A stretch of DNA of 19,333 nucleotides from a virus (taxonomy: Duplodnaviria > Heunggongvirae > Uroviricota > Caudoviricetes): IMG/VR virus record IMGVR_UViG_2534681662_000010; one strand, 5' to 3'. The translations under genes were made by a program, and so were the position numbers. Numbering within the stretch: position 1 is the first letter of the stretch; every line of letters starts with the position of its first letter. Below the pieces are notes generated by a model that did not search any database, was not told the DNA's origin, and saw nothing but the letters and a program-made list of their open reading frames with translations. Shown in pieces: positions 1 to 19,296 of the stretch.

Positions 1-251
1 AGCGCAGTAGCTATCGCACGAATGCTCATTTTGGCTGACAAACCAGCTCGTATCTCCTCGCGCTCAGACAGTGTCAGGTGAGCTACAGCCCGCTTACGCT
101 CATGGGGTTTTATGCCGCCAGTATCCCTTAACATAGTGAAGATCGTTCCGGGTTTTGAACCCAGGATATTCGCTATTTCACTGAAGCCTGTTCCGTTCTT
201 CCATAGTTCAAAAACAGAGGCTTTTTCCTCTGCTGTAAATGTTCGTCTCAT
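1..251 (-). CDS. insI: IS30 transposase, N-terminal 83 codons (partial, runs off window)
   Basis: Reverse-strand translation from ATG (revcomp of 249-251) reads [83 protein letters not shown], matching the remembered IS30 InsI N-terminus. It is missing from the ORF track because no stop lies inside the window. Confidence 0.85.
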
Positions 252-313
252 TCAAAAAACCTCCGCAACCCCATGTTTTCACATAACTGTTGCGTTGACC
301 AATTGAATCTACA
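1..313 (-). mobile_element. IS30, partial (left inverted repeat and 5' part of the transposase gene; the rest lies beyond the window start)
   Basis: Reverse complement of 289-313 reads TGTAGATTCAATTGGTCAACGCAAC, which I recall as the IS30 terminal inverted repeat, followed by the transposase start. The element abuts the IS911 fragment at 313/314. Confidence 0.8.
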
Positions 314-612
314 GTAGCCTTTTTTAATATTTCATTCTCCATTTCAATGCGTTGTAGCTTTTTCCTCAGCTCACGTATTTCGATTTGTTCTGGTGTTATC
401 GGAGAGGCTTTTGGTGTTTTGCCCTGACGCTCATCACGCAGTTGTTTGACCCATCTTGTCATTGTGGAAAGGCCAACATCCATAGCTTTGGCGGCATCTG
501 CCACCGTGTAGTTCTGGTCAACAACCAGTTGAGCGGATTCGCGTTTAAACTCTGCGCTGAAATTTCTTTTTTTCATTGGAGCACCTGCGTTGTTCTGAGG
601 TGAGCATATCAC
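314..612 (-). pseudogene. insN: IS911 OrfA (InsN-like transposase regulator), 3' end disrupted by IS30
   Basis: Translation [88 protein letters not shown] matches IS911 OrfA. The track ORF 208..612 continues into IS30 sequence, giving a non-native C-terminus ([10 protein letters not shown]...). Confidence 0.8.
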
Positions 613-648
613 CTCTGTTCAGGTGGCCAAATTCAGTGTGCCACTTCA
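314..648 (-). mobile_element. IS911 (IS3 family) fragment: left end plus orfA, interrupted by IS30
   Basis: Reverse complement of 620-648 reads TGAAGTGGCACACTGAATTTGGCCACCTG, the remembered IS911 terminal repeat. orfA follows and is cut by the IS30 end immediately after the A-AAA-AAG frameshift motif (revcomp of about 314-330). Confidence 0.8.
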
Positions 649-680
649 GACAAAAGAAAAGGAGAACAGGAGGCTGGCTG

Positions 681-1016
681 ATGAACAGGAAATATTATCT
701 TAATAATATGTGGTGGGGATGGTTTATGGGTGGGTATACTCTGTATATGTCATGGGATTATGAGTTTAAATACAGATTGCTGTTCTGGTGTATTTCTCTC
801 TGCGGAATGGTTTTGTATCCGGTTGCCAGATGGTGTATTGAAAATACTGCCCTGAAATTTACCCGGCCTCATTTCTGGAATAGCGGTTTTTTTGCTGATA
901 CTCCCGGAAAAATGGGATTACTTGCGGTTTATACGGGTACTGTTTTAATATTATCTCTTCCGTTAACTATGATATATATTCTTTCTGTTATCATAAAAAG
1001 GTTGTCTGTAAGATAG
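681..1016 (+). CDS. Colicin Ia/Ib-type pore-forming colicin immunity protein (111 aa), apparently intact
   Basis: ATG at 681 preceded by AGGAGAACAGGAGG. Product MNRKYYLNNMWWGWFMGGYTLYMSWDYEFKYRLLFWCISLCGMVLYPVARW... is a small multi-pass membrane protein that I recognise as colicin Ia immunity-like. It is convergent with a colicin pore-domain fragment, as in ColIa/ColIb. The track ORF start at 576 is an upstream extension through the IS911 end and is not used. Confidence 0.8.
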   Translation: MNRKYYLNNMWWGWFMGGYTLYMSWDYEFKYRLLFWCISLCGMVLYPVARWCIENTALKFTRPHFWNSGFFADTPGKMGLLAVYTGTVLILSLPLTMIYILSVIIKRLSVR

Positions 1017-1037
1017 ACAGCCTGTCTTATATATTAT

Positions 1038-1658
1038 TTAAATGCCCCAGAACTTATTCGCTTTTTCCACAAGCGTTTCATCAATCAGTGTACCGGTGAC
1101 AGCCATCAGTAAACCATACCCGATAATGCCTAAAGCGCTTCCGGTAAGAATACTGAAGACCAGAGCAACAAGAGCCGTTGCGGCATTACCTGCTATGATG
1201 GTTTCTGTTTTAACAAAAAAAGGACACCCGTTATCTGTCCGGGCAGCCTTACCAAACTCAGTGATCCAGTCAGCAAAATTTGTAATTTTTCCTGCATATC
1301 CCAGTCCGCGACTGAACCTATTCAGATTAGACGATATATCAGACAGCTTCACAGACTCAAGGGCTTCGGCAATCGCTGCACGATCTTTTGCATTAATTTT
1401 TTTGTTAATGTCAGCCCGGTACTTTTCATACGTTTTTAATGCCTCTTCAACATTACGTATTTTCTTCCCTTTAGCCTGCCCGGCCATCTCTCTGGCTAAC
1501 TGCTCATCTTTTGCACCATATTTTTCTGAAACTGATTTCAGGAACTCTGTTGTGAAATTAATTGCGTCTTTCGTTGCCTTCAGTTCATCCTGTTTTCTTT
1601 TCTCTTCCGCTATCTTCTGATTGATGCCGGCAAGCTGGTTACGGATATTCTCTTTTTC
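1038..1658 (-). pseudogene. Colicin Ia/Ib-like toxin, C-terminal ~207 codons only (pore-forming domain); 5' two-thirds replaced by IS1
   Basis: Reverse-strand translation ends ...GKITNFADWITEFGKAARTDNGCPFFVKTETIIAGNAATALVALVFSILTGSALGIIGYGLLMAVTGTLIDETLVEKANKFWGI, with the hydrophobic helical hairpin typical of pore-forming colicins and a remembered colicin Ia C-terminus. The track ORF 1038..1736 takes its first 26 codons from IS1 sequence. Confidence 0.8.
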
Positions 1659-1715
1659 GGTGATGCCTCTAATTAGTTGAATCTGATGTATAATACGGGC
1701 TTTTGAGGTTATCTC

Positions 1716-1988
1716 ATGGACAGTGTTAATATTCATTGTCCCCGTTGTCAGTCAGCTCGGGTTTACCGCCATGGTCAGAATCCTAAAGGCCGTGACAGAT
1801 TTCGCTGCCGTGACTGCCACCGTGTGTTTCAGCTCACTTATACTTATCAAGCACGTAAGCCGGGTATGAAAGAGCTGATAACTGAAATGGCCTTTAATGG
1901 TGCCGGGGTTCGCGATACCGCCAGGACAATGAAAATTGGTATTAACACCGTCATCCGGACTTTAAAAAACTCGCGCCAAAGCGAATAA
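1716..1988 (+). CDS. insA: IS1 InsA (zinc-finger/HTH transposition regulator)
   Basis: MDSVNIHCPRCQSARVYRHGQNPKGRDRFRCRDCHRVFQLTYTYQARKPGMKELITEMAFNGAGVRDTARTMKIGINTVIRTLKNSRQSE has the CxxC...CxxC plus HTH layout of IS1 InsA, about 50% identical to the K-12 isoform by eye. Confidence 0.85.
   Translation: MDSVNIHCPRCQSARVYRHGQNPKGRDRFRCRDCHRVFQLTYTYQARKPGMKELITEMAFNGAGVRDTARTMKIGINTVIRTLKNSRQSE
1964..1970 (+). other. IS1 programmed -1 frameshift motif (AAAAAAC) linking insA to insB
   Basis: TTAAAAAACTC at the 3' end of insA, with the insB frame (-1) opening here. Confidence 0.7.
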
Positions 1989-2410
1989 CTTCTTCGCCTG
2001 TTGCCCATGCTGATGTGGCGCTTATCTGCGAGCTTGATGAGCAATAGAGCTACGTTGGCAGTAAAGCCCGGCAACACTGGCTCTGGTACGCGTACAACAC
2101 CAAAACAGGCGGTGTACTGGCCTACACTTTTGGTCCCCGAACCGATCAAACGTGCCGGGAGCTACTGGCACTGCTTACACCCTTCAACATCGGCATGCTG
2201 ACCAGCGATGACTGGGGCAGCTATGGCCGGGAGGTGCCGAAGAATAAGCATCTGACCGGCAAAATATTCACCCAACGCATTGAGCGTAATAATCTGACGC
2301 TACGCACCCGCATTAAGCGGTTGGCTCGTAAAATAATCTGCTTCTCACGCTCAGTTGAGATCCACGAAAAAGTGATCGGAGCGTTTATCGAAAAACACAT
2401 GTTCTACTAA
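1969..2410 (+). pseudogene. insB: IS1 InsB frame (transposase catalytic part) with in-frame TAG at 2045-2047
   Basis: The -1 frame reads ...LICELDEQ*SYVGSKARQHWLWYAYNTKTGGVLAYTFGPRTDQTCRELLALLTPFNIGMLTSDDWGSYGREVPKNKHLTGKIFTQRIERNNLTLRTRIKRLARKIICFSRSVEIHEKVIGAFIEKHMFY. The stop replaces the conserved Trp of the DEQW motif (TGG to TAG). Confidence 0.75.
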
Positions 2411-2424
2411 TTGGATGCACTACC

Positions 2425-2806
2425 ATCACTTGCATGTCTTGCTATCTTATCTTCAGAGAAAATAGTGCAAAGGTTTTTATTTGGGTGTCTTAATAGTTTA
2501 GGAAGTAAAGTTAAGGCTATTATCCACAAGGATATATCTGCAACATGGAGACTTTGTGATATATCTTCAAGACTGTGCCTGAGTGAAAGTTTGTTAAAAA
2601 GAAAATTAAAACACGAAGGCTTATCATTTGGTAAACTAAATCTTGAAGAGCGAATGGTGATGGCGGAAAGCTTATTAAGCTACAATTTATATTCTGTTGG
2701 GAAAGTTGCTGAGATATGCGGTTATGAAAATACGTCATATTTTGTAAGTGTTTTCAGAAGATATTTTGGTGTTCCTCTCCACAAATATTCATCAAGATTT
2801 TTTTAG
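2425..2806 (+). pseudogene. AraC/XylS-family transcriptional regulator, C-terminal DNA-binding domain only (N-terminal domain missing at the IS1 junction)
   Basis: Translation ...WRLCDISSRLCLSESLLKRKLKHEGLSFGKLNLEERMVMAESLLSYNLYSVGKVAEICGYENTSYFVSVFRRYFGVPLHKYSS shows the two-HTH AraC signature. About 35% GC. The frame is closed upstream by IS1 sequence. Confidence 0.7.
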
Positions 2807-2884
2807 AAAAACACATGATGTAACGTGATGCGATTTAATGATTTTGTAATTTTCGTATTTGATAATTTTATGATGCTTTCAGCT

Positions 2885-2916
2885 ACGCCAGAATAATCGC
2901 TGGCGTTTTTCTTTTT
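2885..2916 (+). terminator. Rho-independent terminator-like hairpin (ACGCCAG-loop-CTGGCGT) plus T-run
   Basis: Stem 2885-2891 / 2900-2906, then TTTTTCTTTTT. Lies between the AraC fragment and the holin; could be the AraC gene terminator or a tR'-like late terminator. Confidence 0.6.
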
Positions 2917-3012
2917 GAATAGATGTTCAGGCCTTACGCTAATGTAACTTCTATACCTTTCCCTCTTCGTTCCGAACCGTGTACACCATCCGTTATTTGC
3001 GGAGGTGAGGCT

Positions 3013-3228
3013 ATGAAATCCATGGACAAGTTAACAACGGGCATTGCCTACGGCACCTCCGCAGGCAGTGCTGGCTACTGGTTTTTACAGTGGCTTGATC
3101 AGGTCAGTCCATCACAGTGGGCTGCTATTGGTGTGCTGGGAAGTCTGGTTCTGGGCTTTCTGACTTACCTGACGAATCTGTACTTCAAAATAAGAGAAGA
3201 CAAGCGTAAAGCTGCGCGGGGAGAGTAA
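3013..3228 (+). CDS. Phage 21-type class II holin (pinholin) with dual-start motif (Met1 antiholin, Met4 holin)
   Basis: GGAGGTGAGG RBS, then [71 protein letters not shown], which matches the remembered S21 pinholin almost residue for residue: two TMDs and a basic C-terminus. The track ORF start at 2923 is an upstream extension. Confidence 0.9.
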
Positions 3229-3232
3229 TTCA

Positions 3233-3577
3233 ATGACTCAAAACTATGAACTGATTGTGAAAGGGATCCGCAATTTTGAGAATAAAGTTACGGTAACTTT
3301 AGCGTTACGGGACAAAGAACGCTTTGACGGTGAAATTTTTGACCTGGACATCTCGCTGGACCGTGTTGAAGGTGCCGCGCTGGAGTTTTATGAGGCAGCA
3401 GCCAGAAGGAGCATCAGACAGGTCTTCCTGGATGTTGCTGCCGGGTTATGTGAAGGGGATGAGCTGTCGCCGGAAAAGCGCCCCATAATTTTAGAGGCGC
3501 AGAATGTGTGGATAACCTACAAAGGAAAGCTACCGGGAAGAATTACTGGTTCTCTGAAGACTCCGCCGAAATGGTAA
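3233..3577 (+). CDS. Hypothetical 114-aa protein inserted between holin and endolysin (possibly YdfR/DUF1327-like lysis-cassette protein)
   Basis: ATG 5 nt after the holin stop, with GGGGAGAG RBS; soluble, no TM segment. Position matches the essQ-ydfR-rrrQ arrangement of the K-12 Qin prophage, but homology is not verified. Confidence 0.6.
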   Translation: MTQNYELIVKGIRNFENKVTVTLALRDKERFDGEIFDLDISLDRVEGAALEFYEAAARRSIRQVFLDVAAGLCEGDELSPEKRPIILEAQNVWITYKGKLPGRITGSLKTPPKW

Positions 3578-3815
3578 TTTCACCAGCATATTTTTCTTCC
3601 AGTAATACCGCCAGCCACTTGAAAGAATTTTGTTGTTGCTGGGACCATTTGGGGTTGAGTGATTCAAGCTGGAGCGATGCCAGTGTTGGTTGCATTTGTT
3701 CCTTGGGAATTGAGAATGCCAGATATGAAAATGCGACAGTAAGGGCATTTACATCATCCCGAAGCTTGGAAATGCAGTCGAGCAACTCCTGTAGAGAAAT
3801 GGTGCTATTGTCCAT
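3543..3815 (-). CDS. Hypothetical 90-aa protein, convergent with and 3'-overlapping the 114-aa gene
   Basis: ATG (revcomp 3813-3815) preceded by AGAGAGGA at good spacing. Product MDNSTISLQELLDCISKLRDDVNALTVAFSYLAFSIPKEQMQPTLASLQLESLNPKWSQQQQ... looks helical and soluble. No family recognised. Confidence 0.5.
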   Translation of the reverse strand: MDNSTISLQELLDCISKLRDDVNALTVAFSYLAFSIPKEQMQPTLASLQLESLNPKWSQQQQNSFKWLAVLLEEKYAGEITISAESSENQ

Positions 3816-3920
3816 AAACAATCCTCTCTATTGTATTTAACTATTCCTTGCCTGATTCAACAGGCCGGGACAGATAAACATATCCAGGGTTCAGAAACCG
3901 ATAAATCCTGATAAATATCC

Positions 3921-4463
3921 ATGAACGTAAAAATCAGATACGGCCTGTCGGCTGCCGTTCTGGCACTGATTGCCGTCGGGGCGCCTGCGCCTGATATTCT
4001 CGACCAGTTTCTGAATGAAAAAGAAGGTAACCACACAACGGCATACCGCGATGGTTCCGGCATCTGGACCATCTGTCGGGGTGCCACGGTGGTGGATGGA
4101 AAACCCGTTTTTCCCGGTATGAAACTGTCGAAGGAAAAATGCGACCAGGTTAACGCCATTGAACGGGATAAGGCGCTGGCATGGGTGGAGCGCAATATTA
4201 AAGTGCCACTGACCGAACCACAGAAAGCGGGTATAGCGTCATTTTGTCCCTATAACATTGGCCCCGGTAAGTGTTTCCCGTCGACGTTTTATAAGCGGCT
4301 GAATGCCGATGATCGTAAGGGGGCATGCGAGGCGATTCGCTGGTGGATAAAAGATGGTGGGCGTGATTGCCGCCTGACAAAAGGGCAGAAGAATGGCTGT
4401 TATGGGCAGGTCGAGCGGCGCGATCAGGAAAGCGCACTGGCGTGCTGGGGGCTGGAGCAATGA
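3921..4463 (+). CDS. SAR endolysin (T4-lysozyme/GH24-like muramidase with N-terminal signal-anchor-release domain)
   Basis: N-terminus MNVKIRYGLSAAVLALIAVGAPAP is a weakly hydrophobic Ala/Gly-rich SAR segment. The E...D...T catalytic spacing is present in NEKEGNHTTAYRDGSGIWTICRGAT. Paired with a pinholin, as in phage 21. Confidence 0.85.
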   Translation: MNVKIRYGLSAAVLALIAVGAPAPDILDQFLNEKEGNHTTAYRDGSGIWTICRGATVVDGKPVFPGMKLSKEKCDQVNAIERDKALAWVERNIKVPLTEPQKAGIASFCPYNIGPGKCFPSTFYKRLNADDRKGACEAIRWWIKDGGRDCRLTKGQKNGCYGQVERRDQESALACWGLEQ

Positions 4464-4996
4464 AAATTAATCCGGATCTTATAGGCGTTGTCGTTATTGC
4501 TGGCCTTTCGGTCGCTCTCGTCAAGAGTTGCTCTCACGCCAGTAATCTTCAGAGCGATAACGACGTTCTGCGAAGTGACAACTCTATGCTGGGGCAGGTA
4601 ATCGCCACCCAGGCATTCAACTTCAATCGATTCAATCAGGTTGCAGAACATGCCAACAGTCTTAACTCCCTGATCGACACCAGCACCGAAAAAACCGTAA
4701 TCGAATACCGGGAGATTCTCCGCCGTGAAAAAACCTGTGATCTGCCTGTTCCTGCTGATATCGCTGGTGGGTTGCTCGAATACACGTACCGTTTACGTGC
4801 CAGCGCCATGCACACCGATACCGGCAGACCTAATGAAGCCTATGATCGTACCGCTACCACCAGCTCAATGACCTACTGCCAAGCTGTCTTGTGGATTAAG
4901 CCGCTACTGGCGTTGATAGAAAAAGGAAATAATAATTTTTCGAGTATTCGTGAAATTGATGAGTTGCGTTACAGACCATCTGAGCATGGCCAGTAA
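4460..4996 (+). CDS. Rz-like i-spanin
   Basis: ATG overlaps the endolysin stop (ATGA). N-terminal TM segment (LIGVVVIAGLSVALV), then a long helical periplasmic region; an Rz1-like gene is embedded in the +1 frame. Confidence 0.8.
   Translation: MKINPDLIGVVVIAGLSVALVKSCSHASNLQSDNDVLRSDNSMLGQVIATQAFNFNRFNQVAEHANSLNSLIDTSTEKTVIEYREILRREKTCDLPVPADIAGGLLEYTYRLRASAMHTDTGRPNEAYDRTATTSSMTYCQAVLWIKPLLALIEKGNNNFSSIREIDELRYRPSEHGQ
4725..4871 (+). CDS. Rz1-like o-spanin (outer-membrane lipoprotein) embedded within Rz
   Basis: Hand translation from GTG 4725: (M)KKPVICLFLLISLVGCSNTRTVYVPAPCTPIPADLMKPMIVPLPPAQ, with lipobox LVGC and a proline-rich mature part. GGAG lies 9 nt upstream. Below the ORF-track size cut-off. 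Confidence 0.75.
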   Translation: MKKPVICLFLLISLVGCSNTRTVYVPAPCTPIPADLMKPMIVPLPPAQ

Positions 4997-5071
4997 GGTT
5001 GCAGGAAATTTAAAATCTGGCGATGAAATTTAATATTAGAAATTCATTGCCTAGTGAGATTAATAATGGGA

Positions 5072-5113
5072 ATCCCTTTGTGACGATAAGCTTTAACACA
5101 TTCACAAAGGGAT
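5072..5113. terminator. Perfect 12-bp inverted repeat (ATCCCTTTGTGA ... TCACAAAGGGAT) with 18-nt loop, between convergent Rz and the reverse-strand moron
   Basis: Arms at 5072-5083 and 5102-5113, A/T-rich flanks on both sides. Plausible bidirectional terminator, or a protein-binding palindrome. Confidence 0.5.
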
Positions 5114-5164
5114 ATTTAATATAGGGTGGTTAATTCCCACTTGCTGTGGTGTTTAGGGGGTAAT

Positions 5165-5857
5165 TCAAATCTTATCTAACTCATTATAGGCTTCGATAAT
5201 AAAAATTCTGATTTTAATAAGGCATGATTCAATGAAAGGAATTACTTCATGGTCATTCCCATGGAATCTTATTTTTTTCTCTTCGGTAATGACTATGTTT
5301 AAAGGTACACCATTACCACTTCTTTGTAATTTCCCATTTTCGAAAGTAAAGTCTTCTAATTTTTTGCCATTGATGTGGTTGTTTTTAAAGAGAATTTTTG
5401 CTGAGCTTCCTGCTGTGATTAAACCAAAACCATCTACGCTCACACTTAGGTCTTTAACAGAACTCTCTTCTCTTAAGGGGATTGGTTGTCTGTGCTTTAC
5501 TTCATTAGTGAGATTACACATCATTTCCAACCAAGATTCGCCAGTGTGATAATCCTGTATAGAAGTAAAAATTTTATATAATGGAGAAGATGATGGTGGG
5601 TTTATTTTTAGCGTCTTTGAGAAAAATTTATCAATAAACTCTTTTTTTCCGTAAGGGAAATATATTTTGGGGCGCTCATCATTACTGCGTGGAGAAATAT
5701 ATTTATCATAGGTATCATTAGCGAGATACTCTAAGGAACTTCGTAAGTTTTCCAAAATAGCTTTGACTTTTACAGGCTTGATATGCTGTGTCTGTCTCAT
5801 TATGTCAAGACTTTCTTCAACTTCTTGCAATAAGTCCAACGAGCCTTCTCTAGACAT
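5165..5857 (-). CDS. Hypothetical 230-aa protein; AT-rich moron at the bor-equivalent position (candidate lysogenic-conversion or anti-phage gene)
   Basis: Long reverse-strand ORF in a roughly 30% GC island inside roughly 50% GC phage DNA. AAGGAGA RBS (revcomp of 5863-5869) upstream of the ATG. No signal peptide or TM segment. No family recognised. Confidence 0.7.
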   Translation of the reverse strand: MSREGSLDLLQEVEESLDIMRQTQHIKPVKVKAILENLRSSLEYLANDTYDKYISPRSNDERPKIYFPYGKKEFIDKFFSKTLKINPPSSSPLYKIFTSIQDYHTGESWLEMMCNLTNEVKHRQPIPLREESSVKDLSVSVDGFGLITAGSSAKILFKNNHINGKKLEDFTFENGKLQRSGNGVPLNIVITEEKKIRFHGNDHEVIPFIESCLIKIRIFIIEAYNELDKI

Positions 5858-6240
5858 ACAGGTAATTCTCCTTTATGAATTTTCAACATGTTATAACTAA
5901 TAATATATTTATCATATAACTGTATGAATAAATTGTGAGATTAGTAATGCAAGTTTCTATCCATAGTGTTCTCTAAGTACCCGCTTCCATCATGTTGTTA
6001 CGGACGGTATGGCTAAAACAAAGCACCTGAAGTTAAACGTTCTGAACTTTATGCTCGTTGAGCATATGAATTATCTGTAACCCGATGCGCTGGTTGTGGT
6101 TCACATTGATGGTCGTAATCAGCAGCGGTGGTGCCTGATGGCATGCAACTTCTTACTTATAAAACTTCGTATGGAATTGTTGCCATAACGAGCCCAGCTT
6201 AGCAGTTTTTAATGGGTCCTCCCGGCAGTGTGTCCTGCCA

Positions 6241-6260
6241 CGGGGCGGGAGCGTCGCGGA
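6241..6260 (+). other. Lambda-like cos site (cosN core) upstream of the terminase genes
   Basis: CGGGGCGGGAGCGTCGCGGA aligns with the remembered lambda cosN CGGGGCGGCGACCTCGCGGG; the presumed 12-nt cohesive end is GGGCGGGAGCGT at 6243-6254. Confidence 0.7.
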
Positions 6261-6298
6261 AAAAGGCTAGTTTTTGAAATTTCATTCGTCATCACCAC

Positions 6299-6326
6299 CA
6301 CTGTAATAGATTGATATTACAGTGGT
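6299..6326. repeat. Perfect 11-bp inverted repeat CCACTGTAATA-GATTGA-TATTACAGTGG followed by a T-rich tract, in the cosB-equivalent region
   Basis: Seen directly, about 45 bp downstream of cosN and about 100 bp upstream of the small terminase start. Confidence 0.6.
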
Positions 6327-6428
6327 TTTATTTTTATGGTGTCGATTTTGATTGTTTTTTGTTCATCACTAACACCGTTTGCCTAAAGTTGTTCGCGAGA
6401 TGCATGTTTAAAACATTCTGGAGCGGGT

Positions 6429-6923
6429 ATGGATCGAGAGTTAAAAAATCTGACGCTGAATATCAGTCAACTGGCGGCACTGTCAGGTGTACATCGCCAG
6501 ACTGCTGCGGCAAGGCTGCAAAATCTACCCGTTGCAGGGGGGCATGAAAGCAACCTCAAGCTTTATCGGGTGGTTGATATTGTGTCGGCATTTCTGGCAT
6601 TGCCACCGCCGGTTGCAGAAGGCGAAATGGACGCGCATGAGCGCAAAGCCTGGTATCAGTCTGAACGTGAGCGTCTTAAGTTCGAACAGGAAACGGCACA
6701 ACTCATTCCGGCCAGTGATGTCAGACGGGAGTTTGCCATCTGGGCAAAAGCGGTCGTGCAGGTGCTGGAGACATTACCGGATATTCTGGAACGTGACTGC
6801 GGTCTGCAGCCTGCCGCTGTGAGCCGTGTTCAGTCCATTATTGATGATCTGCGCGATCAGATAGCCCTGCGGGTGACTGAAGCAGGTGCGGATGATGAGG
6901 AGGAATTACAGCAGGAGGAGTAA
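6429..6923 (+). CDS. Terminase small subunit (Nu1-like, N-terminal HTH)
   Basis: Immediately downstream of cos, with its stop overlapping the large terminase start (TAATG). N-terminal ISQLAALSGVHRQTAAARL helix-turn-helix and an acidic C-terminus. Confidence 0.8.
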   Translation: MDRELKNLTLNISQLAALSGVHRQTAAARLQNLPVAGGHESNLKLYRVVDIVSAFLALPPPVAEGEMDAHERKAWYQSERERLKFEQETAQLIPASDVRREFAIWAKAVVQVLETLPDILERDCGLQPAAVSRVQSIIDDLRDQIALRVTEAGADDEEELQQEE

Positions 6924-9025
6924 TGCTGAATCAGGAAACCGCAAAGGCAGCACGAACCGATTCAGGTTATATCCTTCGCGCACCGAGACGAATGCGGGTT
7001 GCTGATGCCGTTGCTCAGTATATGCGGGTGCCCATGGGGGCAGGGAACTCAGTCCCGTGGGATCCGCTGGTGGCACCGTATGTTATTGAGCCGATGAACT
7101 GCCTGGCCTCGCGTGAATACGACGCAGTGATATTTGTTGGTCCGGCACGAACCGGCAAGACTATCGGCCTGATTGACGGCTGGGTGATTTACAACGTGAT
7201 TTGCGATCCTGCGGATATGCTGATCATTCAGATGACGGAGGAAAAAGCCCGCGAACACTCCAAAAAACGACTTGCCAGAACGTTTCGCGTCAGCCCGGAA
7301 GTGGTCAGTCGCCTGAGTCCGAACAAAAATGACAACAACGTTTATGACAGAACATTCCTTGCTGGCAACTACCTGAAAATCGGCTGGCCGTCAGTCAATA
7401 TCATGTCCTCATCAGATTATAAATGCGTGGCGCTGACGGATTATGACCGTTTTCCGGAAGATATTGATGGCGAGGGGGATGCCTTCTCTCTTGCCTCAAA
7501 ACGTACCACCACATTTATGTCCAGTGGTATGACGCTGGTGGAGAGTTCCCCCGGTAGGGATGTGAAGGATGTGAAATGGCGAAGGACTTCACCGCATGAG
7601 GCTCCACCAACCACGGGGATACTGTCGCTCTATAACCGTGGCGATCGCCGTCGCTGGTACTGGCCCTGTCCACACTGTGGTGAGTATTTTCAGCCCTGCG
7701 GCGATGTGGTTGCTGGTTTCCGTGATATTGCCGATCCCGTGCTGGCAAGTGAGGCGGCTTATATTCAGTGTCCTTCCTGTTCAGGACGGATTATGCCTGA
7801 ACAAAAACGTGAGCTGAACGGACGTGGGGTCTGGTTGCGGGATGGTGAATCCATCAATGCGGATGGCAGTCGTTATGGTGATCCCCGACGCTCACGTATT
7901 GCGTCATTCTGGATGGAGGGGCCGGCAGCTGCTTACCAGACACTCTCGCAACTCGTTTACAAACTGCTTACTGCAGAACAGGAATACGAGACAACCGGAA
8001 GTGAAGAAACACTCAGGGCGGTTATCAATACCGACTGGGGATTACCTTATCTTCCCCGCGCCAGCATGGAGCAACGAAAAAGTGAACTGCTTGAGCAGCG
8101 GGCAGAGCCAGTTCCTTCCCGCAGTGTGCCGGATGGCGTTAATTTTCTTGTGGCGACAGTGGATGTGCAGGCGGGACGTCATCGCCGTTTTGTGGTTCAG
8201 GTAACGGGCTATGGCAGCCGTGGCGAACGCTGGATTATTGATCGTTACAACATCACGCAGTCATTGCGCAGTGACTGCGACGGGGAGAGCCAGCGAATTG
8301 ATCCGGCCAGCTATCCGGAAGACTGGGATGTCCTGCTGACGGATGTTTTTCATAAAAGCTGGCCGCTGGCCTCCGATCCTTCTCAACAAATGCGACTGAT
8401 GGCAATGGCGGTGGACTCCGGCGGTGAAGACGGGGTCACTGATAATGCCTATAAATTCTGGCGTCGTTGCCGTCGTGATGGCCTTGGTAAACGTATTTAC
8501 CTGTTTAAGGGCGACAGCATCCGGCGCGCAAAACTGATCACCCGTACATTCCCTGATAACACCGGACGAACGGGCCGACGGGCGCAGGCCGCAGGTGATG
8601 TGCCGCTCTGGCTTCTTCAGACGGATGCACTGAAAGACCGGGTGAATAACGCGTTATGGCGTGACTCGCCAGGTCCCGGCTATGTGCATTTCCCTGACTG
8701 GCTGGGGAGCTGGTTTTACGACGAACTGACGTATGAAGAGCGGAGCAGTGACGGGAAATGGAGTAAGCCGGGTCGCGGTGCCAACGAAGCTTTTGACCTG
8801 ATGGTGTATGCCGAGGCTCTGGTCATTCTGCATGGATACGAAAAGATCCGCTGGCCGGATGCACCGGAGTGGGCGAGCCGGGAAACCTGGCTGGAGTGTG
8901 TCCCGGACAGTACCGAACCGTCACCCTCACCGGAACCGGTACCCACGCCTGTTAAAAAACAAAAACGGAAGAAAACAGTAACTGACGATGTTAACCCCTG
9001 GCTGACTTCCGGAGGATGGTTATGA
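6923..9025 (+). CDS. Terminase large subunit, lambda GpA family
   Basis: 700 aa with Walker A (VGPARTGKT), an internal Cys4 zinc ribbon (CPHCGEYFQPCG...CPSCSG) and a C-terminal nuclease region; synteny with lambda A. Confidence 0.9.
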   Translation: MLNQETAKAARTDSGYILRAPRRMRVADAVAQYMRVPMGAGNSVPWDPLVAPYVIEPMNCLASREYDAVIFVGPARTGKTIGLIDGWVIYNVICDPADMLIIQMTEEKAREHSKKRLARTFRVSPEVVSRLSPNKNDNNVYDRTFLAGNYLKIGWPSVNIMSSSDYKCVALTDYDRFPEDIDGEGDAFSLASKRTTTFMSSGMTLVESSPGRDVKDVKWRRTSPHEAPPTTGILSLYNRGDRRRWYWPCPHCGEYFQPCGDVVAGFRDIADPVLASEAAYIQCPSCSGRIMPEQKRELNGRGVWLRDGESINADGSRYGDPRRSRIASFWMEGPAAAYQTLSQLVYKLLTAEQEYETTGSEETLRAVINTDWGLPYLPRASMEQRKSELLEQRAEPVPSRSVPDGVNFLVATVDVQAGRHRRFVVQVTGYGSRGERWIIDRYNITQSLRSDCDGESQRIDPASYPEDWDVLLTDVFHKSWPLASDPSQQMRLMAMAVDSGGEDGVTDNAYKFWRRCRRDGLGKRIYLFKGDSIRRAKLITRTFPDNTGRTGRRAQAAGDVPLWLLQTDALKDRVNNALWRDSPGPGYVHFPDWLGSWFYDELTYEERSSDGKWSKPGRGANEAFDLMVYAEALVILHGYEKIRWPDAPEWASRETWLECVPDSTEPSPSPEPVPTPVKKQKRKKTVTDDVNPWLTSGGWL

Positions 9026-9234
9026 ACCAGAATGATATCGAAGCCATGATTCAGCGTTATACGGAAGCTGAAATGGCGGTGCTGGACGGAAAATCCGTCA
9101 CCTTTAATGGTCAGCAGATGACCATGGAAAACTTATCTGAGATCCGGCAGGGGCGGCAGGAGTGGGAGCGCCGCCTTGCGGCTCTGATTACACGACGACG
9201 GGGGCATCCCGGGTACCGGCTGGCGAGGTTCTGA
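9022..9234 (+). CDS. W: Head-tail joining protein, lambda gpW-like
   Basis: 70 aa ending ...RRRGHPGYRLARF, like lambda W (...RRRGPAGFYV). Start ATG 9022 after GGAGG; stop overlaps the portal start (TGATG). The track start at 9016 is also possible. Confidence 0.8.
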   Translation: MNQNDIEAMIQRYTEAEMAVLDGKSVTFNGQQMTMENLSEIRQGRQEWERRLAALITRRRGHPGYRLARF

Positions 9235-10742
9235 TGGCAATTCTTGATGATGTGATTGGCGTTTTTTCACCAAGATGGAAAGCGGCAAGGCTGCGTTCCC
9301 GTGCGGTGATCCAGGCTTATGAGGCCGTAAAAACGACGCGGACACATAAAGCCCGACGGGAGAGCCGAACTGCCGACCAGTTAAGCTAGTACGGGGCCGT
9401 GTCGTTACGTGAGCAGGCCCGTTACCTTGATAACAACCACGATCTGGTCATTGGTGTATTTGACAAGCTGGAAGAACGGGTGGTGGGGAAAAACGGGATT
9501 ATTGTCGAGCCACATCCGGTATTACGCAATGGGGCCATTGCCCGTGATCTGGCAGCGGAGATTCGCACCCGATGGAGTGAATGGTCTGTCAGTCCGGAGG
9601 TCACCGGGCAGTTTACCCGTCCGATGCTGGAACGTCTGATGCTGCGTACCTGGCTGCGCGATGGTGAGGTGTTTGCCCAGATGGTTTCCGGGCGCATAAA
9701 CAGCCTGACGCCTTCTGCCGGTGTTCATTTCTGGCTGGAGGCGCTCGAGCCGGACTTTATTCCCATGACCAGTGATGAGAGCAACAGGCTGAATCAGGGC
9801 GTGTTTGTTGATGACTGGGGGCGTCCCGAAAAATATCTGGTGTATAAAAGCCGTCCCGTATCCGGGCGGCAGATGGAAACCAAAGAAGTGGATGCAGAGC
9901 GAATGCTGCATCTTAAATTTGTTCGCCGTCTGCACCAGATGCGCGGGACGTCTTTGTTGTCCGGTGTGCTGATCCGCCTCAGTGCTCTGAAAGAGTATGA
10001 AGATTCTGAGCTGACTGCAGCAAGGATCGCCGCTGCTCTGGGGATGTACATCCGGAAAGGCGACGGACAGAGCTATGAAACGGATGGTAATGACAGCAAG
10101 GAGAATGAACGCGAGCTTACCATTCAGCCAGGCATTATTTACGACGATCTGAAACCCGGCGAAGAAATCGGAATGGTGAAGTCGGATCGCCCCAATCCTA
10201 ACCTTGAAACTTTTCGTAATGGTCAGTTGCGTGCCGTGGCGGCGGGCAGTCGTCTGAGTTTTTCCAGTACAGCGCGCAACTATAACGGCACTTACAGCGC
10301 CCAGCGTCAGGAGCTGGTTGAATCTACTGATGGCTACCTGATCCTGCAGGACTGGTTTATTGGTGCCGTCACCCGCCCGATGTACCGTGCCTGGCTGAAA
10401 CAGGCTGTGGCATCCGGTGTTATCAGGCTACCCCGCGATCTGGACCGATCTTCACTGTATACCGCGGTGTATTCCGGACCGGTGATGCCGTGGATTGACC
10501 CTGTTAAGGAGGCTGAGGCCTGGAAAATTCAGATTCGTGGTGGAGCGGCGACAGAATCAGACTGGGTACGTGCTGGTGGTCGTAATCCGGATGATGTCAA
10601 ACGTCGGCGCAAGGCCGAAATTGATGAAAACCGCAAGCTGGATCTGGTATTTGATACCGATCCGGCCAGTGATAAAGGAGGCAGCAGTGCCGCAACGAAA
10701 CGACAGGAGCCGCAGCACACCGACGACCAGTCCGAAGAATAA
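9234..10742 (+). pseudogene. Portal protein (lambda gpB / Gifsy preconnector family) interrupted by in-frame TAG at 9387-9389
   Basis: ATG 9234 (MAILDDVIGVFSPRWKAARLRSRAVIQAYEAVKTTRTHKARRESRTADQLS) runs to TAG, then continues in the same frame as YGAVSLREQARYLDNNHD... for a further 450 codons (track ORF 9399..10742). Confidence 0.8.
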
Positions 10743-10755
10743 TTCCTGGTTCAGG

Positions 10756-12714
10756 ATGCAGGCAGGTCACCAGAGTGACGCGGATATTTATATTTATGAC
10801 GAGATTGGTTTCTGGGGTGTTACAGCGAAGCAGTTTATCAGTGATCTGAATGCACTGGGCGATATCACCCACATTAATCTCCATATTAATTCACCGGGTG
10901 GCGATGTCTTTGAAGGCATCGCCATTTTTAATGCGCTGAAAACACATGGTGCGTCCATTACCGTTTATGTCGACGGTGTGGCGGCGTCAATGGCGTCGGT
11001 CATTGCGATGGTGGGAAACCCGGTCATTATGCCGGAAAACACCTTCATGATGATTCATAAACCATTTGGCTTTACGGGCGGTGATGCGGAGGACATGCGC
11101 ACCTATGCCGACCTGCTCGATAAAGTTGAGGCGGTTCTGTTACCCGCTTATGCACAGAAAACCGGGAAAACCACCGATGAAATTGCTGCCATGCTGGCGG
11201 ATGAGACCTGGATGTCCGGTGCCGAATGTCTGGCACATGGATTTGCTGATCAGGTAACGCCAGCCGTTAAGGCAATGGCATGTATTCAGTCAAAACGTAC
11301 AGAGGAATTTAAAAAGATGCCGGAATCCATTCGAAACATGATTACTCCGCCACGCAACAGTGCTCCACGCGTACAGGATGATGAACCTGCAGCCTCCCGG
11401 ACGCCAGTGCAGGCAGCAGCACCCGTGGTGGATGAAAACAGTATCCGTGCGCAGGTCCTGGCAGAGCAAAAAGCGCGTGTAAACGGTATTAATGATCTGT
11501 TTGCCATGTTTGGCGGGCGTTATCAGACGCTGCAGGCCCAGTGTCTTGCCGATCCTGAATGTTCGCTGGAGCAGGCCCGCGAAAAGCTGTTGAACGAGAT
11601 GGGGCGCGAGTCCACGCCATCCAATAAAAATACCCCGGCTCATATTTATGCCGGTAACGGTAATTTTGTGGGGGACGGGATCCGCCAGGCGCTGATGGCG
11701 CGTGCCGGATTTGAAAAAACCGAACGTGATAATGTCTACAACGGGATGACCCTGCGTGAATATGCCCGTATGTCACTGACTGAACGGGGTATTGGGGTTT
11801 CCGGTTATAACCCGATGCAGATGGTCGGTGCGGCGTTCACACACAGTACGTCTGACTTCGGTAATATTCTGCTGGATGTTGCGAACAAAGCCATTCTGCA
11901 GGGCTGGGAAGATGCCCCTGAAACCTATGAACAGTGGACGCGGAAAGGTCAGTTGTCTGATTTTAAAATTGCCCATCGTGTGGGTATGGGGGGCTTCAGT
12001 GCTCTGCGTCAGGTGCGTGAAGGGGCGGAATATAAATACGTCACCACCGGAGATAAACAGGCCACTATTGCACTGGCGACCTATGGCGAGCTGTTCAGTA
12101 TCACCCGTCAGGCCATTATCAATGATGATCTGAATATGCTGACCGATGTCCCGATGAAACTGGGCCGTGCGGCGAAATCCACTATTGCCGATCTGGTTTA
12201 TGCCATTCTGACGTCTAACCCGAAAATCTCCACAGATAATGTAAGTCTGTTCGATAAAGCGAAACATGCAAACGTACTGGAGAGCGCTGCAATGGACGTG
12301 GCATCGCTGGATAAAGCCCGCCAGTTGATGCGCGTTCAGAAAGAGGGGGAGCGTCATCTGAATATTCGTCCTGCGTTCGTACTGGTACCGACGGCGATGG
12401 AGTCTGTTGCTAACCAGGTCATTCGCTCCTCAAGTGTCAAGGGGGCTGACATTAACGCCGGTATTATTAACCCGGTGAAAGATTTTGCGACCGTTATTGC
12501 AGAGCCTCGTCTTGATGATAACAGCCAGACCACCTTCTACCTGGCTGCGTCAAAAGGCTCCGATACGATTGAAGTGGCTTATCTCAACGGTGTGGATACG
12601 CCATATATTGATCAGATGGAGGGCTTCAGTGTGGATGGCGTGACAACGAAAGTGCGTATTGACGCCGGTGTCGCGCCAGTTGATCACCGCGGTCTGGTGA
12701 AATGTACGGCGTAA
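10756..12714 (+). CDS. Fused prohead protease (ClpP/S14-like) and major capsid protein
   Basis: N-terminal part has ClpP-like motifs (INSPGGDVFEGIAIFNALK, ASMASVIAMVG, MIHKP). The C-terminal ~330 aa is capsid-like and is followed by a terminator-like hairpin. Start chosen at ATG 10756 just after the portal stop; the track start 10495 lies inside the portal gene. Confidence 0.8.
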   Translation: MQAGHQSDADIYIYDEIGFWGVTAKQFISDLNALGDITHINLHINSPGGDVFEGIAIFNALKTHGASITVYVDGVAASMASVIAMVGNPVIMPENTFMMIHKPFGFTGGDAEDMRTYADLLDKVEAVLLPAYAQKTGKTTDEIAAMLADETWMSGAECLAHGFADQVTPAVKAMACIQSKRTEEFKKMPESIRNMITPPRNSAPRVQDDEPAASRTPVQAAAPVVDENSIRAQVLAEQKARVNGINDLFAMFGGRYQTLQAQCLADPECSLEQAREKLLNEMGRESTPSNKNTPAHIYAGNGNFVGDGIRQALMARAGFEKTERDNVYNGMTLREYARMSLTERGIGVSGYNPMQMVGAAFTHSTSDFGNILLDVANKAILQGWEDAPETYEQWTRKGQLSDFKIAHRVGMGGFSALRQVREGAEYKYVTTGDKQATIALATYGELFSITRQAIINDDLNMLTDVPMKLGRAAKSTIADLVYAILTSNPKISTDNVSLFDKAKHANVLESAAMDVASLDKARQLMRVQKEGERHLNIRPAFVLVPTAMESVANQVIRSSSVKGADINAGIINPVKDFATVIAEPRLDDNSQTTFYLAASKGSDTIEVAYLNGVDTPYIDQMEGFSVDGVTTKVRIDAGVAPVDHRGLVKCTA

Positions 12715-12738
12715 ACGTCGCAGACAACAACTCTGATG

Positions 12739-12757
12739 GCCCGTAAGGGCTTTTTTT
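12739..12757 (+). terminator. Short GC hairpin (GCCC-GTAA-GGGC) followed by T7, downstream of the capsid gene
   Basis: Seen directly; the stem is only 4-5 bp, so strength is uncertain. Confidence 0.45.
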
Positions 12758-12800
12758 GTACCTGAAATCAGCCCCTGAACGGGGCTGTGCGGAGACAGTT

Positions 12801-13124
12801 ATGGCAAAGAATTTTGTAGAAGAAGGAAAAACGGTGGCGATTGTTGCCAGTGCAGCCATCAGCAGCGGAGATCTGGTGCAGGTGGGTGATGTTTTTGCGG
12901 TGGCGCTGACCGATATTCCACAGGGTGAAACAGGCGACGGCATGACCGAAGGTGTGTTTATGCTGCCTAAGCTGAAAACGGATGACATGAAAACGGGTAA
13001 GAAGGTTTATCTGAAGTCCGGAAAAGTTCAGCTGACTAACAGCGGCTCTGATCCGCTGGTCGGGGTTGTCTGGGCAGATGCCGGAACCAGTGCAGAAGAA
13101 GTGCCGGTAAAACTCAATGTCTGA
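12801..13124 (+). CDS. Small head protein (DUF2190-like; putative head completion or decoration protein)
   Basis: ATG 12801 after GGAGA; 107 aa MAKNFVEEGKTVAIVASAAISSGDLVQVGDVFAVALTDIPQGETGDGMTEGVFMLPK..., lying between the capsid gene and the FII-like gene. Confidence 0.6.
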   Translation: MAKNFVEEGKTVAIVASAAISSGDLVQVGDVFAVALTDIPQGETGDGMTEGVFMLPKLKTDDMKTGKKVYLKSGKVQLTNSGSDPLVGVVWADAGTSAEEVPVKLNV

Positions 13125-13392
13125 TCCCTTTTCCCGGCTGGCAGCGCGTATGGATGCGATCACGGTCAGAAAGATGGGAAAGACAGCCTCGATTAATGAT
13201 GCCGATATGACTGTGATCCCGGGAGAAACACTGGCAGAGCTGAATGCTCTGTCCGGACCTGCGGTCTCTCTGGTGGTGTTTTCTTCGGGATACCGCCCAC
13301 GGCGCGGGGATCGCGTTGTTTATGACGGACAACAATGGACGGTCACACGGCATGAACGTTTTAACGGTAAGCCAATGATCTTTATTGAGTAA
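13117..13392 (+). CDS. Head-tail joining protein, lambda gpFII-like
   Basis: MSDPFSRLAARMDAITVRKMGKTASI...RRGDRVVYDGQQWTVTRHE resembles lambda FII (ADFDNLFDAAIARADETIRGYMGTSATI...RRGDTLTIGEENFWVDRV) and sits directly upstream of Z. Confidence 0.65.
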   Translation: MSDPFSRLAARMDAITVRKMGKTASINDADMTVIPGETLAELNALSGPAVSLVVFSSGYRPRRGDRVVYDGQQWTVTRHERFNGKPMIFIE

Positions 13393-13403
13393 AGAGGTGT
13401 GGG

Positions 13404-13982: not shown

Positions 13983-14380
13983 ACCGACATACACAAATCC
14001 GCCAGGCCGTACTGGCACGCCTTCGGGAACAGTGTGGAGACAGCGCCACGTTTTTTGACGGGCTTCCGGCATTTATTGATGCGCAGGAACTGCCTGCCGT
14101 GGCGGTGTGGCTGAGTGATGCTCAGTACACCGGAAAAATGACGGATGAAGATGACTGGCAGGCTGTTCTGCATATTGCTGTCTTCATCCGGGCACAGGCA
14201 CCGGATTCAGAGCTGGATATGTGGATGGAGAGCACCATTTTCCCGGCTCTGAATGATATACCGGCACTTTCCGGACTCATCGACACCCTGATCCCTCTCG
14301 GTTTTAACTATCAACGTGATAATGAGATGGCCACCTGGGCGATGGCGGAAATCACGTACCAGATCACGTACACGAATTAA
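13967..14380 (+). CDS. U: Minor tail protein U (tail terminator)
   Basis: ...GDSATFFDGLPAFIDAQELPAVAVWLSDAQYTG...WQAVLHIAVFIRAQAPDSELDMWMESTIFPALNDIPALSGLI... matches lambda gpU. The true start may be ATG 13979 (MNRHTQIRQAV), which aligns with the lambda U N-terminus. Confidence 0.9.
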   Translation: MADPMNRHTQIRQAVLARLREQCGDSATFFDGLPAFIDAQELPAVAVWLSDAQYTGKMTDEDDWQAVLHIAVFIRAQAPDSELDMWMESTIFPALNDIPALSGLIDTLIPLGFNYQRDNEMATWAMAEITYQITYTN

Positions 14381-14391
14381 AGGAGGTGGCA

Positions 14392-15135: not shown

Positions 15136-15155
15136 CAGGACGATACTCATCATTT

Positions 15156-15179: not shown

Positions 15180-15192
15180 GCAGGTGGAGAAC

Positions 15193-19286: not shown

Positions 19287-19296
19287 GAGGCCCTGA

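Follow-up and report, generated by a model that had tools for sequence, protein, structure and literature searches.

Organization of the colicin module

The window, a 19,333-nucleotide stretch from a record assigned to the Caudoviricetes (IMGVR_UViG_2534681662_000010), carries at its left end a colicin immunity gene (681–1016, plus strand) and the remnant of a colicin gene (1038–1658, minus strand), with insertion sequences on both sides. The two genes are convergent; the immunity gene stops at 1016 and the colicin stop codon on the opposite strand lies at 1038–1040, which leaves a gap of 21 nt. The scan placed a terminator-like hairpin between the two genes (999–1023), which the native ColIa locus L019 has as well. 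The 1010-bp segment 649–1658 occurs at 100% identity on two complete E. coli plasmids (NZ_CP141737.1 and NZ_OZ501624.1) and at 95–99% identity in hundreds of ColIa loci, and a chance pattern is thereby excluded. Many plasmid contigs also carry the identical module.

The immunity gene is full-length and has its own ribosome binding site (GGAGG at 669–673, 7 nt before the ATG as read from the sequence), as the first-pass annotation of this DNA had stated. Its 111-residue product matches the Pfam family of E1-type colicin immunity proteins (PF03526) with 28.1 bits against a cut-off of 25, and 101 of the 111 residues (91%) are identical to canonical Iia in an alignment that is co-linear from end to end and contains no gaps. 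To the variant clade of Ia-type immunity proteins it shows 97–98% identity. Judged by the Kyte–Doolittle profile only, the window protein is superimposable on canonical Iia, with strong peaks near residues 36–46 and 84–104 and a weaker, aromatic-rich first segment; E1-type colicin immunity proteins have three membrane-spanning segments (PMC7064778, PMC10906532). An NCBIfam scan of the window and canonical immunity proteins returned no family match and was of no help with typing, and the NCBI pipeline labels the window allele just as a "colicin E1 family microcin immunity protein", without using the name "colicin 1A immunity protein". By profile and co-linearity, the predicted product is an Iia-subgroup member of the E1-type (three-helix) colicin immunity proteins.

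The colicin gene keeps only its C-terminal part, also as first described. The remnant consists of 206 codons plus the stop, corresponding to residues 421–626 of a 626-residue colicin Ia-like protein, and thus comprises the end of the long helix and the pore-forming domain (PF01024, 6.9e-49). Neither the window nor the plasmid copies contain codons 1–420 or the region upstream of them, and the translocation domain, the central Cir-binding receptor domain and the SOS-regulated promoter are thus missing; RefSeq marks the identical plasmid copy of the remnant as a pseudogene missing its N-terminus. The solved colicin Ia structure (1CII) aligns with the remnant at 389–391 bits over residues 421–624, and the Ia pore is ~94% identical to it, with 12 of the 206 residues differing.

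The initial assignment to an Ia/Ib type can be narrowed on this basis. The Ia part of it stands, and alignment places the pair with Ia-like sequences of a minority allele group. The Ib part was rejected, since the colicin Ib pore shares the fold family PF01024 but scores only ~177 bits against 389 for Ia, and the immunity protein shares 91% of its residues with Iia. Colicins Ia and Ib have nearly identical translocation and receptor domains, and those are the domains absent from the window. The Ia and Ib immunity proteins are only ~22% identical according to a published comparison (PMC6723558), and the window protein would therefore not be expected to protect against Ib.

Insertion sequences flanking the module

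Upstream of the immunity gene lies the 5′ remnant of an IS3-family element, which we take to be IS911 (314–648, minus strand). It retains the terminal repeat and the start of orfA; its ORF matches PF01527 (HTH_Tnp_1), and at this position of the identical plasmid RefSeq annotates an "IS3 family transposase, incomplete". Inserted into IS911 is the end of an IS30 (1–313, minus strand), comprising the 26-bp terminal repeat and the 5′ part of the transposase gene, and RefSeq annotates an IS30-like element at the corresponding position. Compared with the IS30 of plasmid loci L003 and L009–L015, window positions 1–313 match in reverse orientation only, while 288–313 also match the opposite IS30 end in forward orientation. 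All plasmid copies of the module have their IS30 in the other orientation.

IS911 ends at 648, close upstream of the immunity gene as reported in the first pass, and 32 nt of native sequence are kept before the ATG (649–680, plus strand), including the ribosome binding site. Native ColIa homology begins at 649, and 649–680 aligns with positions 3001–3032 of L019. In L019 a promoter-like site (GTGACA-18-TATTAT) is located 71–100 nt upstream of the immunity ATG, and this site is missing in the window. A promoter scan of the plus strand from 300 to 680, covering IS911 and its end, gave no promoter-like site at threshold, and none was found when 560–680 was read by eye. Because the native site lay 71–100 nt upstream and nothing promoter-like has taken its place, IS911 more likely removed the immunity promoter than, as had been proposed, rewired it.

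On the other side, the remnant abuts a 766-bp IS1-family element (1659–2424, plus strand; insA at 1716–1988). The element starts with GGTGATGCC... at 1659 and ends with ...GCACTACC, contains InsA and DDE_Tnp_IS1 domains (Pfam PF03811, PF12759 and PF03400), and is close in length to the ~768 bp usual for IS1-family elements, which are bounded by imperfect terminal inverted repeats. Its insB frame is broken by an internal TAG at 2045–2047, and the present copy therefore cannot have supplied its own transposase. IS1 has different flanks in window, plasmid and chromosome, and it lacks a target duplication. In the plasmid copies the right flank re-enters the native ColIa neighbourhood ~3.0 kb further on, 200 bp before a ProQ/FinO gene, and IS1 there substitutes for ~3.0 kb comprising cia codons 1–420, the colicin promoter region and yagA. 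The idea that IS1 stands in place of the receptor and translocation domains was right in that IS1 begins at 1659; the event was, however, not a simple insertion into cia, a possibility we rejected because the sequence on the far side of IS1 does not belong to cia and a target duplication is lacking. The resumption of the right flank ~3.0 kb further on points to a deletion. IS1-mediated adjacent deletion gives the same arrangement, with IS1 abutting the break without target duplication and the other flank resuming 3.0 kb on, and the internal stop in insB of the window IS1 is the respect in which the present case differs.

The junction with a lambdoid prophage

To the right of IS1 the window leaves the plasmid neighbourhood. 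The element is followed by an N-terminally truncated gene for an AraC-type regulator (2425–2806, plus strand; PF12833 and PF00165), and an AraC-type remnant is the right-hand neighbour of the prophage IS1 copy in other E. coli chromosomes. Window positions 1659–3400 are 99.7% identical to these chromosomal loci, for which the RefSeq annotation lists a helix-turn-helix gene as incomplete. The remainder of the window, which lies outside the colicin module, is the late region of a lambdoid prophage (2923–19333, plus strand), with Pfam matches for a P21-type holin, DUF1327, lysozyme, gpA terminase, lambda-type portal, ClpP-capsid fusion and tape measure, and it is 96–99% identical to chromosomal prophages and phage-like records.

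A three-way alignment with the plasmid and chromosomal copies revealed the one unusual feature of the region: the window IS1 is a hybrid, whose SNPs are of the plasmid type as far as 1781 and of the chromosome type from 1880 on. The single switch from plasmid to chromosome type falls within 1782–1879, a stretch of 98 bp that is the longest over which both IS1 copies are identical. The best reading of the join is homologous recombination between the IS1 of the plasmid module and the IS1 of the prophage. In having a hybrid IS1 with a single crossover, it resembles the IS-mediated plasmid–chromosome recombination of Hfr-type integration; it differs in the broken insB frame, and the likeness here is inferred from one junction only.

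It is quite possible, if the less probable account, that the join is an assembly artefact, in which the assembler crossed over within IS1 and the true genome contains the plasmid module, with IS1 followed by ProQ/FinO, and a separate prophage IS1. The junction is absent from all 5,426 complete E. coli genomes and from the plasmid contigs read, and no complete-genome record matching the left part of the window (1–3400) spans it. The hybrid IS1 and its InsA protein were likewise found nowhere else: the best IS1 copy in the 5,426 genomes is 99.5% identical, with none at 100%, and an exact-sequence look-up of the hybrid InsA gave no record. The SNP type moreover switches only once, inside the longest identical stretch, which is where an assembler would mis-join, and the window itself begins inside another repeat, IS30. 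However, RecA-mediated recombination between two IS copies also yields one clean crossover in the longest identical stretch, and the joined product is structured as expected for plasmid integration. The inverted IS30 is a further argument, since collapse of a 26-bp repeat cannot yield this inversion relative to all plasmid copies at the usual k-mer sizes, and it suggests that the source genome was truly rearranged here. If the join is real, the hybrid IS1 records the capture of a plasmid defence gene beside a chromosomal prophage.

Retention of the immunity gene and decay of the colicin gene

The order IS911 remnant, immunity gene, colicin remnant and IS1 is found on 9 of the 10 plasmid contigs read, and in the tenth (L011) IS1 lies further in. 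The exact window immunity protein is on record in 352 blocks of a public collection. PLSDB contains 1031 plasmids with an Iia homologue, 679 of them in the 80–90% identity band, and three plasmids sampled from this band had virtually no cia. Across the relatives the immunity ORF is intact while cia has been lost in at least six different ways, with residues 421–626, 528–626, 555–626 or 365–626 kept, with an internal deletion, or with only the last ~6 codons left. The module is thus not new; it is common on plasmids and exemplifies a phenomenon already in the literature, orphan immunity genes being widespread beside identically truncated colicins on E. coli plasmids (Nat Commun 2025, PMC12546727).

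The two genes of the module differ in the changes they have accumulated. Five replacements are specific to the remnant of this lineage (A471D, A518E, W564G, R565C and A610T), and relative to its nearest relative the remnant has 5 nonsynonymous changes and 1 synonymous change. Trp564, which is Gly in the remnant, is invariant in five solved pore domains (colicins Ia, Ib, E1 and B and pyocin S5). The combination of W564G and R565C with A471D and A518E fits relaxed constraint, and the remnant is a decaying, promoterless pseudogene that is now gathering damaging substitutions. The immunity protein has only two lineage-specific changes, F89L and L97M, both of which are conservative, and Met97 is the canonical residue.

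We consider it somewhat unlikely that the immunity gene is a silent relic as well, with the whole 1.3-kb segment being dead DNA between insertion sequences that hitch-hikes on a successful plasmid lineage and gives no protection. The upstream region is the main reason to entertain this: IS911 removed everything beyond 32 nt from the immunity gene, the native promoter-like site included, and the scan detected no replacement on the plus strand from 300 to 680. In addition, copies of the exact module are near-identical to each other, so that purifying selection since the truncation is not measurable within the lineage and the intact immunity ORF could simply mean recency; the protein does have its two lineage-specific changes, and the immunity gene is broken in some relatives, L002 having a stop at W25 and L022 lacking an annotated copy. 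Against this, the ORF and its ribosome binding site are intact, and the two changes are mild where the neighbouring pore remnant shows radical ones. The gene has also stayed intact across the independent losses of cia, at least six of them, and on hundreds of plasmids without any cia. Protection, finally, needs very little immunity protein, a cloned Ia immunity gene alone protecting K-12 even at leaky expression (PMC10761095).

The first-pass annotation had further raised the possibility that a chimeric pore-domain protein is made from a promoter reading out of IS1. The reading frame of the remnant does run on into IS1 at 1659, where 26 codons in the IS1 end (1659–1736, minus strand) extend it to an ATG, and the resulting ORF of 232 residues (1038–1736), whose extension had been described correctly, is sometimes annotated by automatic gene callers (L015 and L017). 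The proposed expression finds no support in the promoter scan, which detected no promoter-like site upstream of the ATG at 1736; the sole site on this strand is weak, lies inside the IS1 end from 1717 to 1690 and, being downstream of the ATG, cannot drive the full ORF. Colicin channels generally open only when the voltage is positive on the side of insertion, and pore domains made in the cytoplasm would accordingly be harmless. It is unlikely that a chimeric protein matters, and very improbable that the ORF, although open, provided with an ATG and annotated by some callers, is expressed with a function of its own, for instance as an internal toxin restrained by the immunity protein, given that its pore part has lost the invariant Trp564 and carries the other replacements, and that a sister plasmid with IS1 further in has kept only residues 528–626, which makes the longer fragment dispensable.

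A divergent allele block in colicin Ia and its immunity protein

The window pair is assigned by alignment to a minority Ia allele group, distinct from canonical Ia and from Ib. A divergent block of ~700 bp starts 66 nt before the immunity gene, covers that gene and the H6–H7 pore segment, reaches to around residue 535 of cia and is ~8% divergent from the canonical sequence, compared to ~1% outside the block. The variant differs from canonical Ia by 10 replacements in the immunity protein and by 6 in the H6–H7 membrane segment of the pore (F545I, S547N, L548F, V559A, E562D and L567F). Within the voltage-gated H6–H7 region (residues 544–572) the differences between variant and classical Ia are 6 nonsynonymous and 0 synonymous, compared to 1 and 7 in the rest of the pore remnant (Fisher p = 0.005). 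E1-type immunity proteins are said to recognise helices 6 and 7 of the pore domain. The replacements in H6–H7 and in the immunity protein look like toxin and immunity protein co-changing under diversifying selection.

Positive selection in situ across the whole immunity gene was considered and rejected, as the gene has a dN/dS of ~0.2 against the canonical allele and a dS of 0.22, four times the value elsewhere in the locus. These values argue for an imported or an old divergent block. The block may define a separate "Ia-variant" immunity specificity within colicin Ia, but we regard this as rather unlikely. If it does, the orphan would protect against a colicin that escapes classical Ia immunity, or vice versa. 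Given the 10 immunity and 6 H6–H7 replacements, protection against classical Ia is not to be assumed. Intact producers of the variant are rare, with one found (NZ_CP148367.1), and immunity-only carriers are common.

Discussion

Our data very probably describe a decayed ColIa-type bacteriocin locus of a large conjugative E. coli plasmid, with its immunity gene intact, that in the window is joined to a prophage through a recombinant IS1. An IS1-family element replaced ~3.0 kb of the locus, taking with it the colicin promoter region, codons 1–420 and yagA, and left as toxin residue a promoterless pore-domain pseudogene in which damaging substitutions are accumulating. IS911 came to lie 32 nt upstream of the immunity gene, displacing the native promoter-like site, and was later hit by IS30. 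Any transcription of the immunity gene would most likely come from read-through or from a weak fortuitous promoter, and the product, if the gene is transcribed, would be a small protein of the inner membrane, related to E1/Ia immunity. This protein would block the channel of a matching imported colicin, so that the cell would be immune and yet bear no cost of making a toxin. The most likely match is the variant Ia allele that is intact on NZ_CP148367.1, not necessarily classical Ia, and probably not Ib. Homologous recombination between the plasmid IS1 and the prophage IS1, with its crossover in 1782–1879, probably joined the module to the prophage.

The closest known counterpart is the cia/iia locus of ColIa-type IncI1 and IncF plasmids, with which the module shares the gene order, the convergent arrangement of the two genes 21 nt apart, the common hairpin, a 111-residue immunity protein at 91% identity, and a pore domain at ~94% identity that is co-linear with 1CII. 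The plasmid copies also share the flanking genes, with DUF6404 upstream and ProQ/FinO downstream. Unlike that locus, the window has a toxin gene that lacks codons 1–420 and the promoter, and it carries the ~700-bp divergent block with ten immunity and six H6–H7 replacements.

The published orphan immunity genes of E. coli plasmids, which include a near-canonical Iia on IncF plasmids (WP_001080732.1), are similar in that immunity is kept without a working toxin, in that the same truncation occurs on many plasmids of varied size and origin, and in their setting on large conjugative virulence or resistance plasmids (PMC12546727). The window differs in that the region upstream of the immunity gene has been replaced by IS911 and in that the module adjoins a prophage, not plasmid genes. 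In the IncF orphan Iia examples examined, one of which is from an O25:H4 strain, the ST131 serotype, ~6 cia codons are left, compared to the 206-codon fragment in the window.

Neither of the side results, the allele groups or the hybrid IS1, alters current understanding. The existence of at least two Ia allele groups, with their differences exactly at the presumed contact between toxin and immunity protein, does offer a simple natural system for the evolution of immunity specificity. The window itself adds to the documented cases in which a colicin immunity gene has outlived its toxin, as happens often on E. coli plasmids, and this pattern of kept immunity genes has been read as a sign that warfare by colicins is important in nature.

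A colicin Ia-like immunity gene beside an IS1-truncated colicin

In its leftmost 2.4 kb the window contains a colicin-locus fragment of 1.0 kb hemmed in by the stacked ends of mobile elements. One end of IS30 (1–313) is followed by a 5′ remnant of an IS3-family element (314–648), taken to be IS911, whose OrfA fragment matches PF01527, and then by 32 nt of native colicin-locus sequence (649–680) with a GGAGG at 669–673. The 111-aa immunity gene, imm, lies on the plus strand at 681–1016, followed by a terminator-like hairpin (999–1023), a colicin remnant of 206 codons and a stop on the minus strand (1038–1658, the pore remnant) and an IS1-family element (1659–2424). A mechanical 232-aa ORF (1038..1736) takes its first 26 codons from inside the IS1 end. 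The ORF listing and our reading of the sequence bear out the coordinates of the first-pass annotation, those of this ORF included, and confirm its observation of an orphan immunity gene adjoining an IS1-truncated colicin; its interpretation overall is partly supported.

The locus had been typed as Ia/Ib. The 111-aa protein scores 28.1 bits against PF03526 (E1-type colicin immunity; Pfam cut-off 25) and aligns without gaps to Iia, the colicin Ia immunity protein of a standard IncI1 ColIa plasmid, with 101 of 111 residues identical. The pore remnant matches PF01024 (colicin pore domain, 6.9e-49), corresponds to residues 421–626 of a 626-residue colicin Ia-like protein, and scores 389 bits against the solved colicin Ia (1CII) compared to only ~177 bits against the colicin Ib pore. 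These scores and the match to Iia make the locus Ia-like, not Ib-like, and do not support the mixed type. The Ia and Ib immunity proteins share ~22% identity (PMC6723558).

Condition and expression of the two genes

Relative to the nearest relative, NZ_CP076710.1, imm carries one silent change and two conservative replacements, F89L and L97M, the methionine at residue 97 being that of the classical (standard ColIa) allele, and the hydropathy profile of its product matches that of classical Iia. The pore remnant differs from the same relative at one silent site and by five replacements, A471D, A518E, W564G, R565C and A610T. Of these, W564G removes a conserved tryptophan that colicins Ia, Ib, E1, B and pyocin S5 have in common. 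Such a pattern fits a pseudogene.

The best-matching promoter-like site ahead of imm in native loci (GTGACA, 18 nt, TATTAT; 10 of 12 matches) is 71–100 nt upstream of the start; it is absent from the window because IS911 sits at −32. A scan of the plus strand from 300 to 680 detected nothing promoter-like, and with the native site gone the proposal that IS911 may have rewired the promoter is not supported. Very little Ia immunity protein is needed: a cloned gene gave ~3 logs of protection even from a repressed pBAD promoter (PMC10761095). The suggestion that a chimeric pore-domain protein could be made is not supported either; the sole promoter-like site that the scan placed on the strand of the 232-aa ORF is downstream of its ATG.

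A variant allele of the colicin Ia locus

Loci read from other records (L003, L005, L007 and the native ColIa locus L019) fall into at least two allele groups, set apart by a ~700-bp block over imm and H6–H7 of the pore domain (window 681–1300). To compare the window's allele group (variant) with the classical one, the intact variant NZ_CP148367.1 and the near-intact NZ_CP076710.1 were aligned with one classical locus. Divergence is ~1% over most of 4 kb and ~8% in one block, which begins 66 nt ahead of the imm start and reaches ~275 nt into the colicin gene, cia, from its 3′ end. For imm, which lies within the block, dS is 0.22 and dN 0.043, compared to a dS of 0.04–0.06 for the rest of cia; these values suggest that the segment is old or was imported, and speak less for recent change in place.

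The variant pore is defined by seven replacements (F545I, S547N, L548F, V559A, E562D, L567F and S615T). Six of them lie in residues 544–572, the helices 6–7 segment, which undergoes voltage-driven insertion across the membrane (PMC2230624, PMC2585860). Between variant and classical alleles the ratio of nonsynonymous to synonymous changes is 6:0 in residues 544–572 and 1:7 in the rest of the remnant (Fisher p = 0.005). Recognition by E1-type immunity proteins probably involves the helices 6–7 region. The comparison is suggestive, no more, of a shifted immunity specificity in the variant allele. One locus, L008, is a mosaic with classical immunity and part of the variant pore pattern. An intact variant-type colicin was seen only on NZ_CP148367.1, and several other variant loci are frameshifted.

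Origin of the module and loss of the toxin

Two complete E. coli plasmids, NZ_CP141737.1 and NZ_OZ501624.1, match the unique segment 649–1658 at 100% identity, and in them RefSeq annotates an immunity gene and a colicin pseudogene 'missing N-terminus' with IS3-family and IS1 flanks. The exact immunity protein is recorded in 352 blocks of a public assembly collection. Of ten contigs read that carry it, nine have the IS911 remnant, then imm, then the colicin remnant and lastly IS1; they are plasmid-like, ~100–137 kb, with ProQ/FinO, IS66, S6 autotransporter protease, K88-type fimbrial and similar genes. To the right of IS1 in the plasmid copies, the native ColIa neighbourhood resumes ~200 bp before the ProQ/FinO gene, 3,040 bp past the break as measured on a reference ColIa plasmid, and examination of the IS1 flanks revealed no target duplication. 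It follows that the toxin was lost in place, through an IS1-associated deletion that removed cia codons 1–420, the upstream region and yagA.

On the tenth plasmid contig (L011, 6336–6712) the identical immunity protein is present, IS1 lies ~320 bp nearer to imm, only cia residues 528–626 are left, and EAL and K88-type fimbrial genes follow in place of ProQ/FinO. This arrangement indicates a second IS1-associated deletion within the same lineage.

A hybrid IS1 at the prophage junction

Beyond the right end of IS1 the window departs from the plasmids and continues into a truncated AraC-type gene and lambdoid prophage late genes, a stretch 99.7% identical to chromosomal loci of several E. coli strains. 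At those loci this IS1 variant, internal stop included, recurs in the same place. The AraC-type regulator gene (2425–2806) has its N-terminus cut off by IS1, a truncation shared by several E. coli chromosomes. A three-way alignment revealed that the window IS1 (1659–2424) is a hybrid of the plasmid and chromosomal copies. It has the plasmid bases at 1720, 1724, 1759 and 1781 and the chromosomal bases at 14 plasmid-differing sites from 1880 to 2418, with an exception at 2238, where the one aligned chromosome differs from both plasmid copy and window. A single crossover falls in 1782–1879, the longest stretch identical between the two copies. A search of 5,426 complete genomes of E. coli returned no identical IS1, and an exact look-up found no record of the hybrid InsA protein.

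The insB frame contains an internal TAG at 2045–2047, common to prophage copies in other strains and annotated there as 'internal stop'; canonical IS1 has a Trp codon (TGG) at this position. In the plasmid copy position 2046 is a G and the frameshifted transposase is intact. Because of the TAG, the window IS1 is transposition-defective on its own.

We consider it somewhat more likely than not that this one junction, on which the judgement rests, arose by real IS1 × IS1 recombination between plasmid and prophage, as in plasmid integration. Alternatively, the junction would be an assembly mis-join and the contig chimeric, but IS30 (1–313) lies in the opposite orientation to every plasmid copy of the module, and its inversion suggests a real rearrangement of the source DNA. 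As the two 26-bp ends of IS30 are identical, the junction sequence is the same in either orientation, and inversion, re-insertion at the same site and an assembly effect are candidate causes.

Farther into the prophage, the late region (6214–19333) shares 97–98% identity with database entries for small 'plasmids' (e.g. NZ_CP148393.1, 44.6 kb), so assemblies may at times present this phage as a circular molecule outside the chromosome. A 230-aa ORF in the lysis/terminase region (5165–5857, minus strand) has no Pfam match.

Orphan colicin Ia immunity on plasmids

In a translated search, 1031 of 72,556 plasmids were found to carry an Iia homologue, including one identical to the window's protein, 41 at 95–99% identity, which are the window's allele group, 275 at 90–95%, which are classical Iia, and 679 at 80–90%. 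The three examples opened from the last band (L023, L025 and L027) are all IncF plasmids, one from O25:H4 (the ST131 serotype), and all harbor the near-canonical Iia WP_001080732.1 with only the last ~6 codons of cia. NCBI's pipeline labels this protein 'colicin E1 family microcin immunity protein', so name-based automated surveys would miss it as Ia immunity.

Across the loci examined, at least six different lesions truncate or disrupt cia while imm remains open. The parts retained are 421–626 in the window module, 528–626 in L011, 555–626 in L024 and 365–626 in L008; other damage includes an internal deletion in L006 and frameshifts in L019–L021. A 2025 survey counted 243 plasmids carrying orphan immunity genes, pore-forming colicins accounting for 146 of them, and noted heavily truncated bacteriocin genes with identical truncations common to different plasmids (PMC12546727). 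The arrangement in the window belongs to a known and populous class of element.
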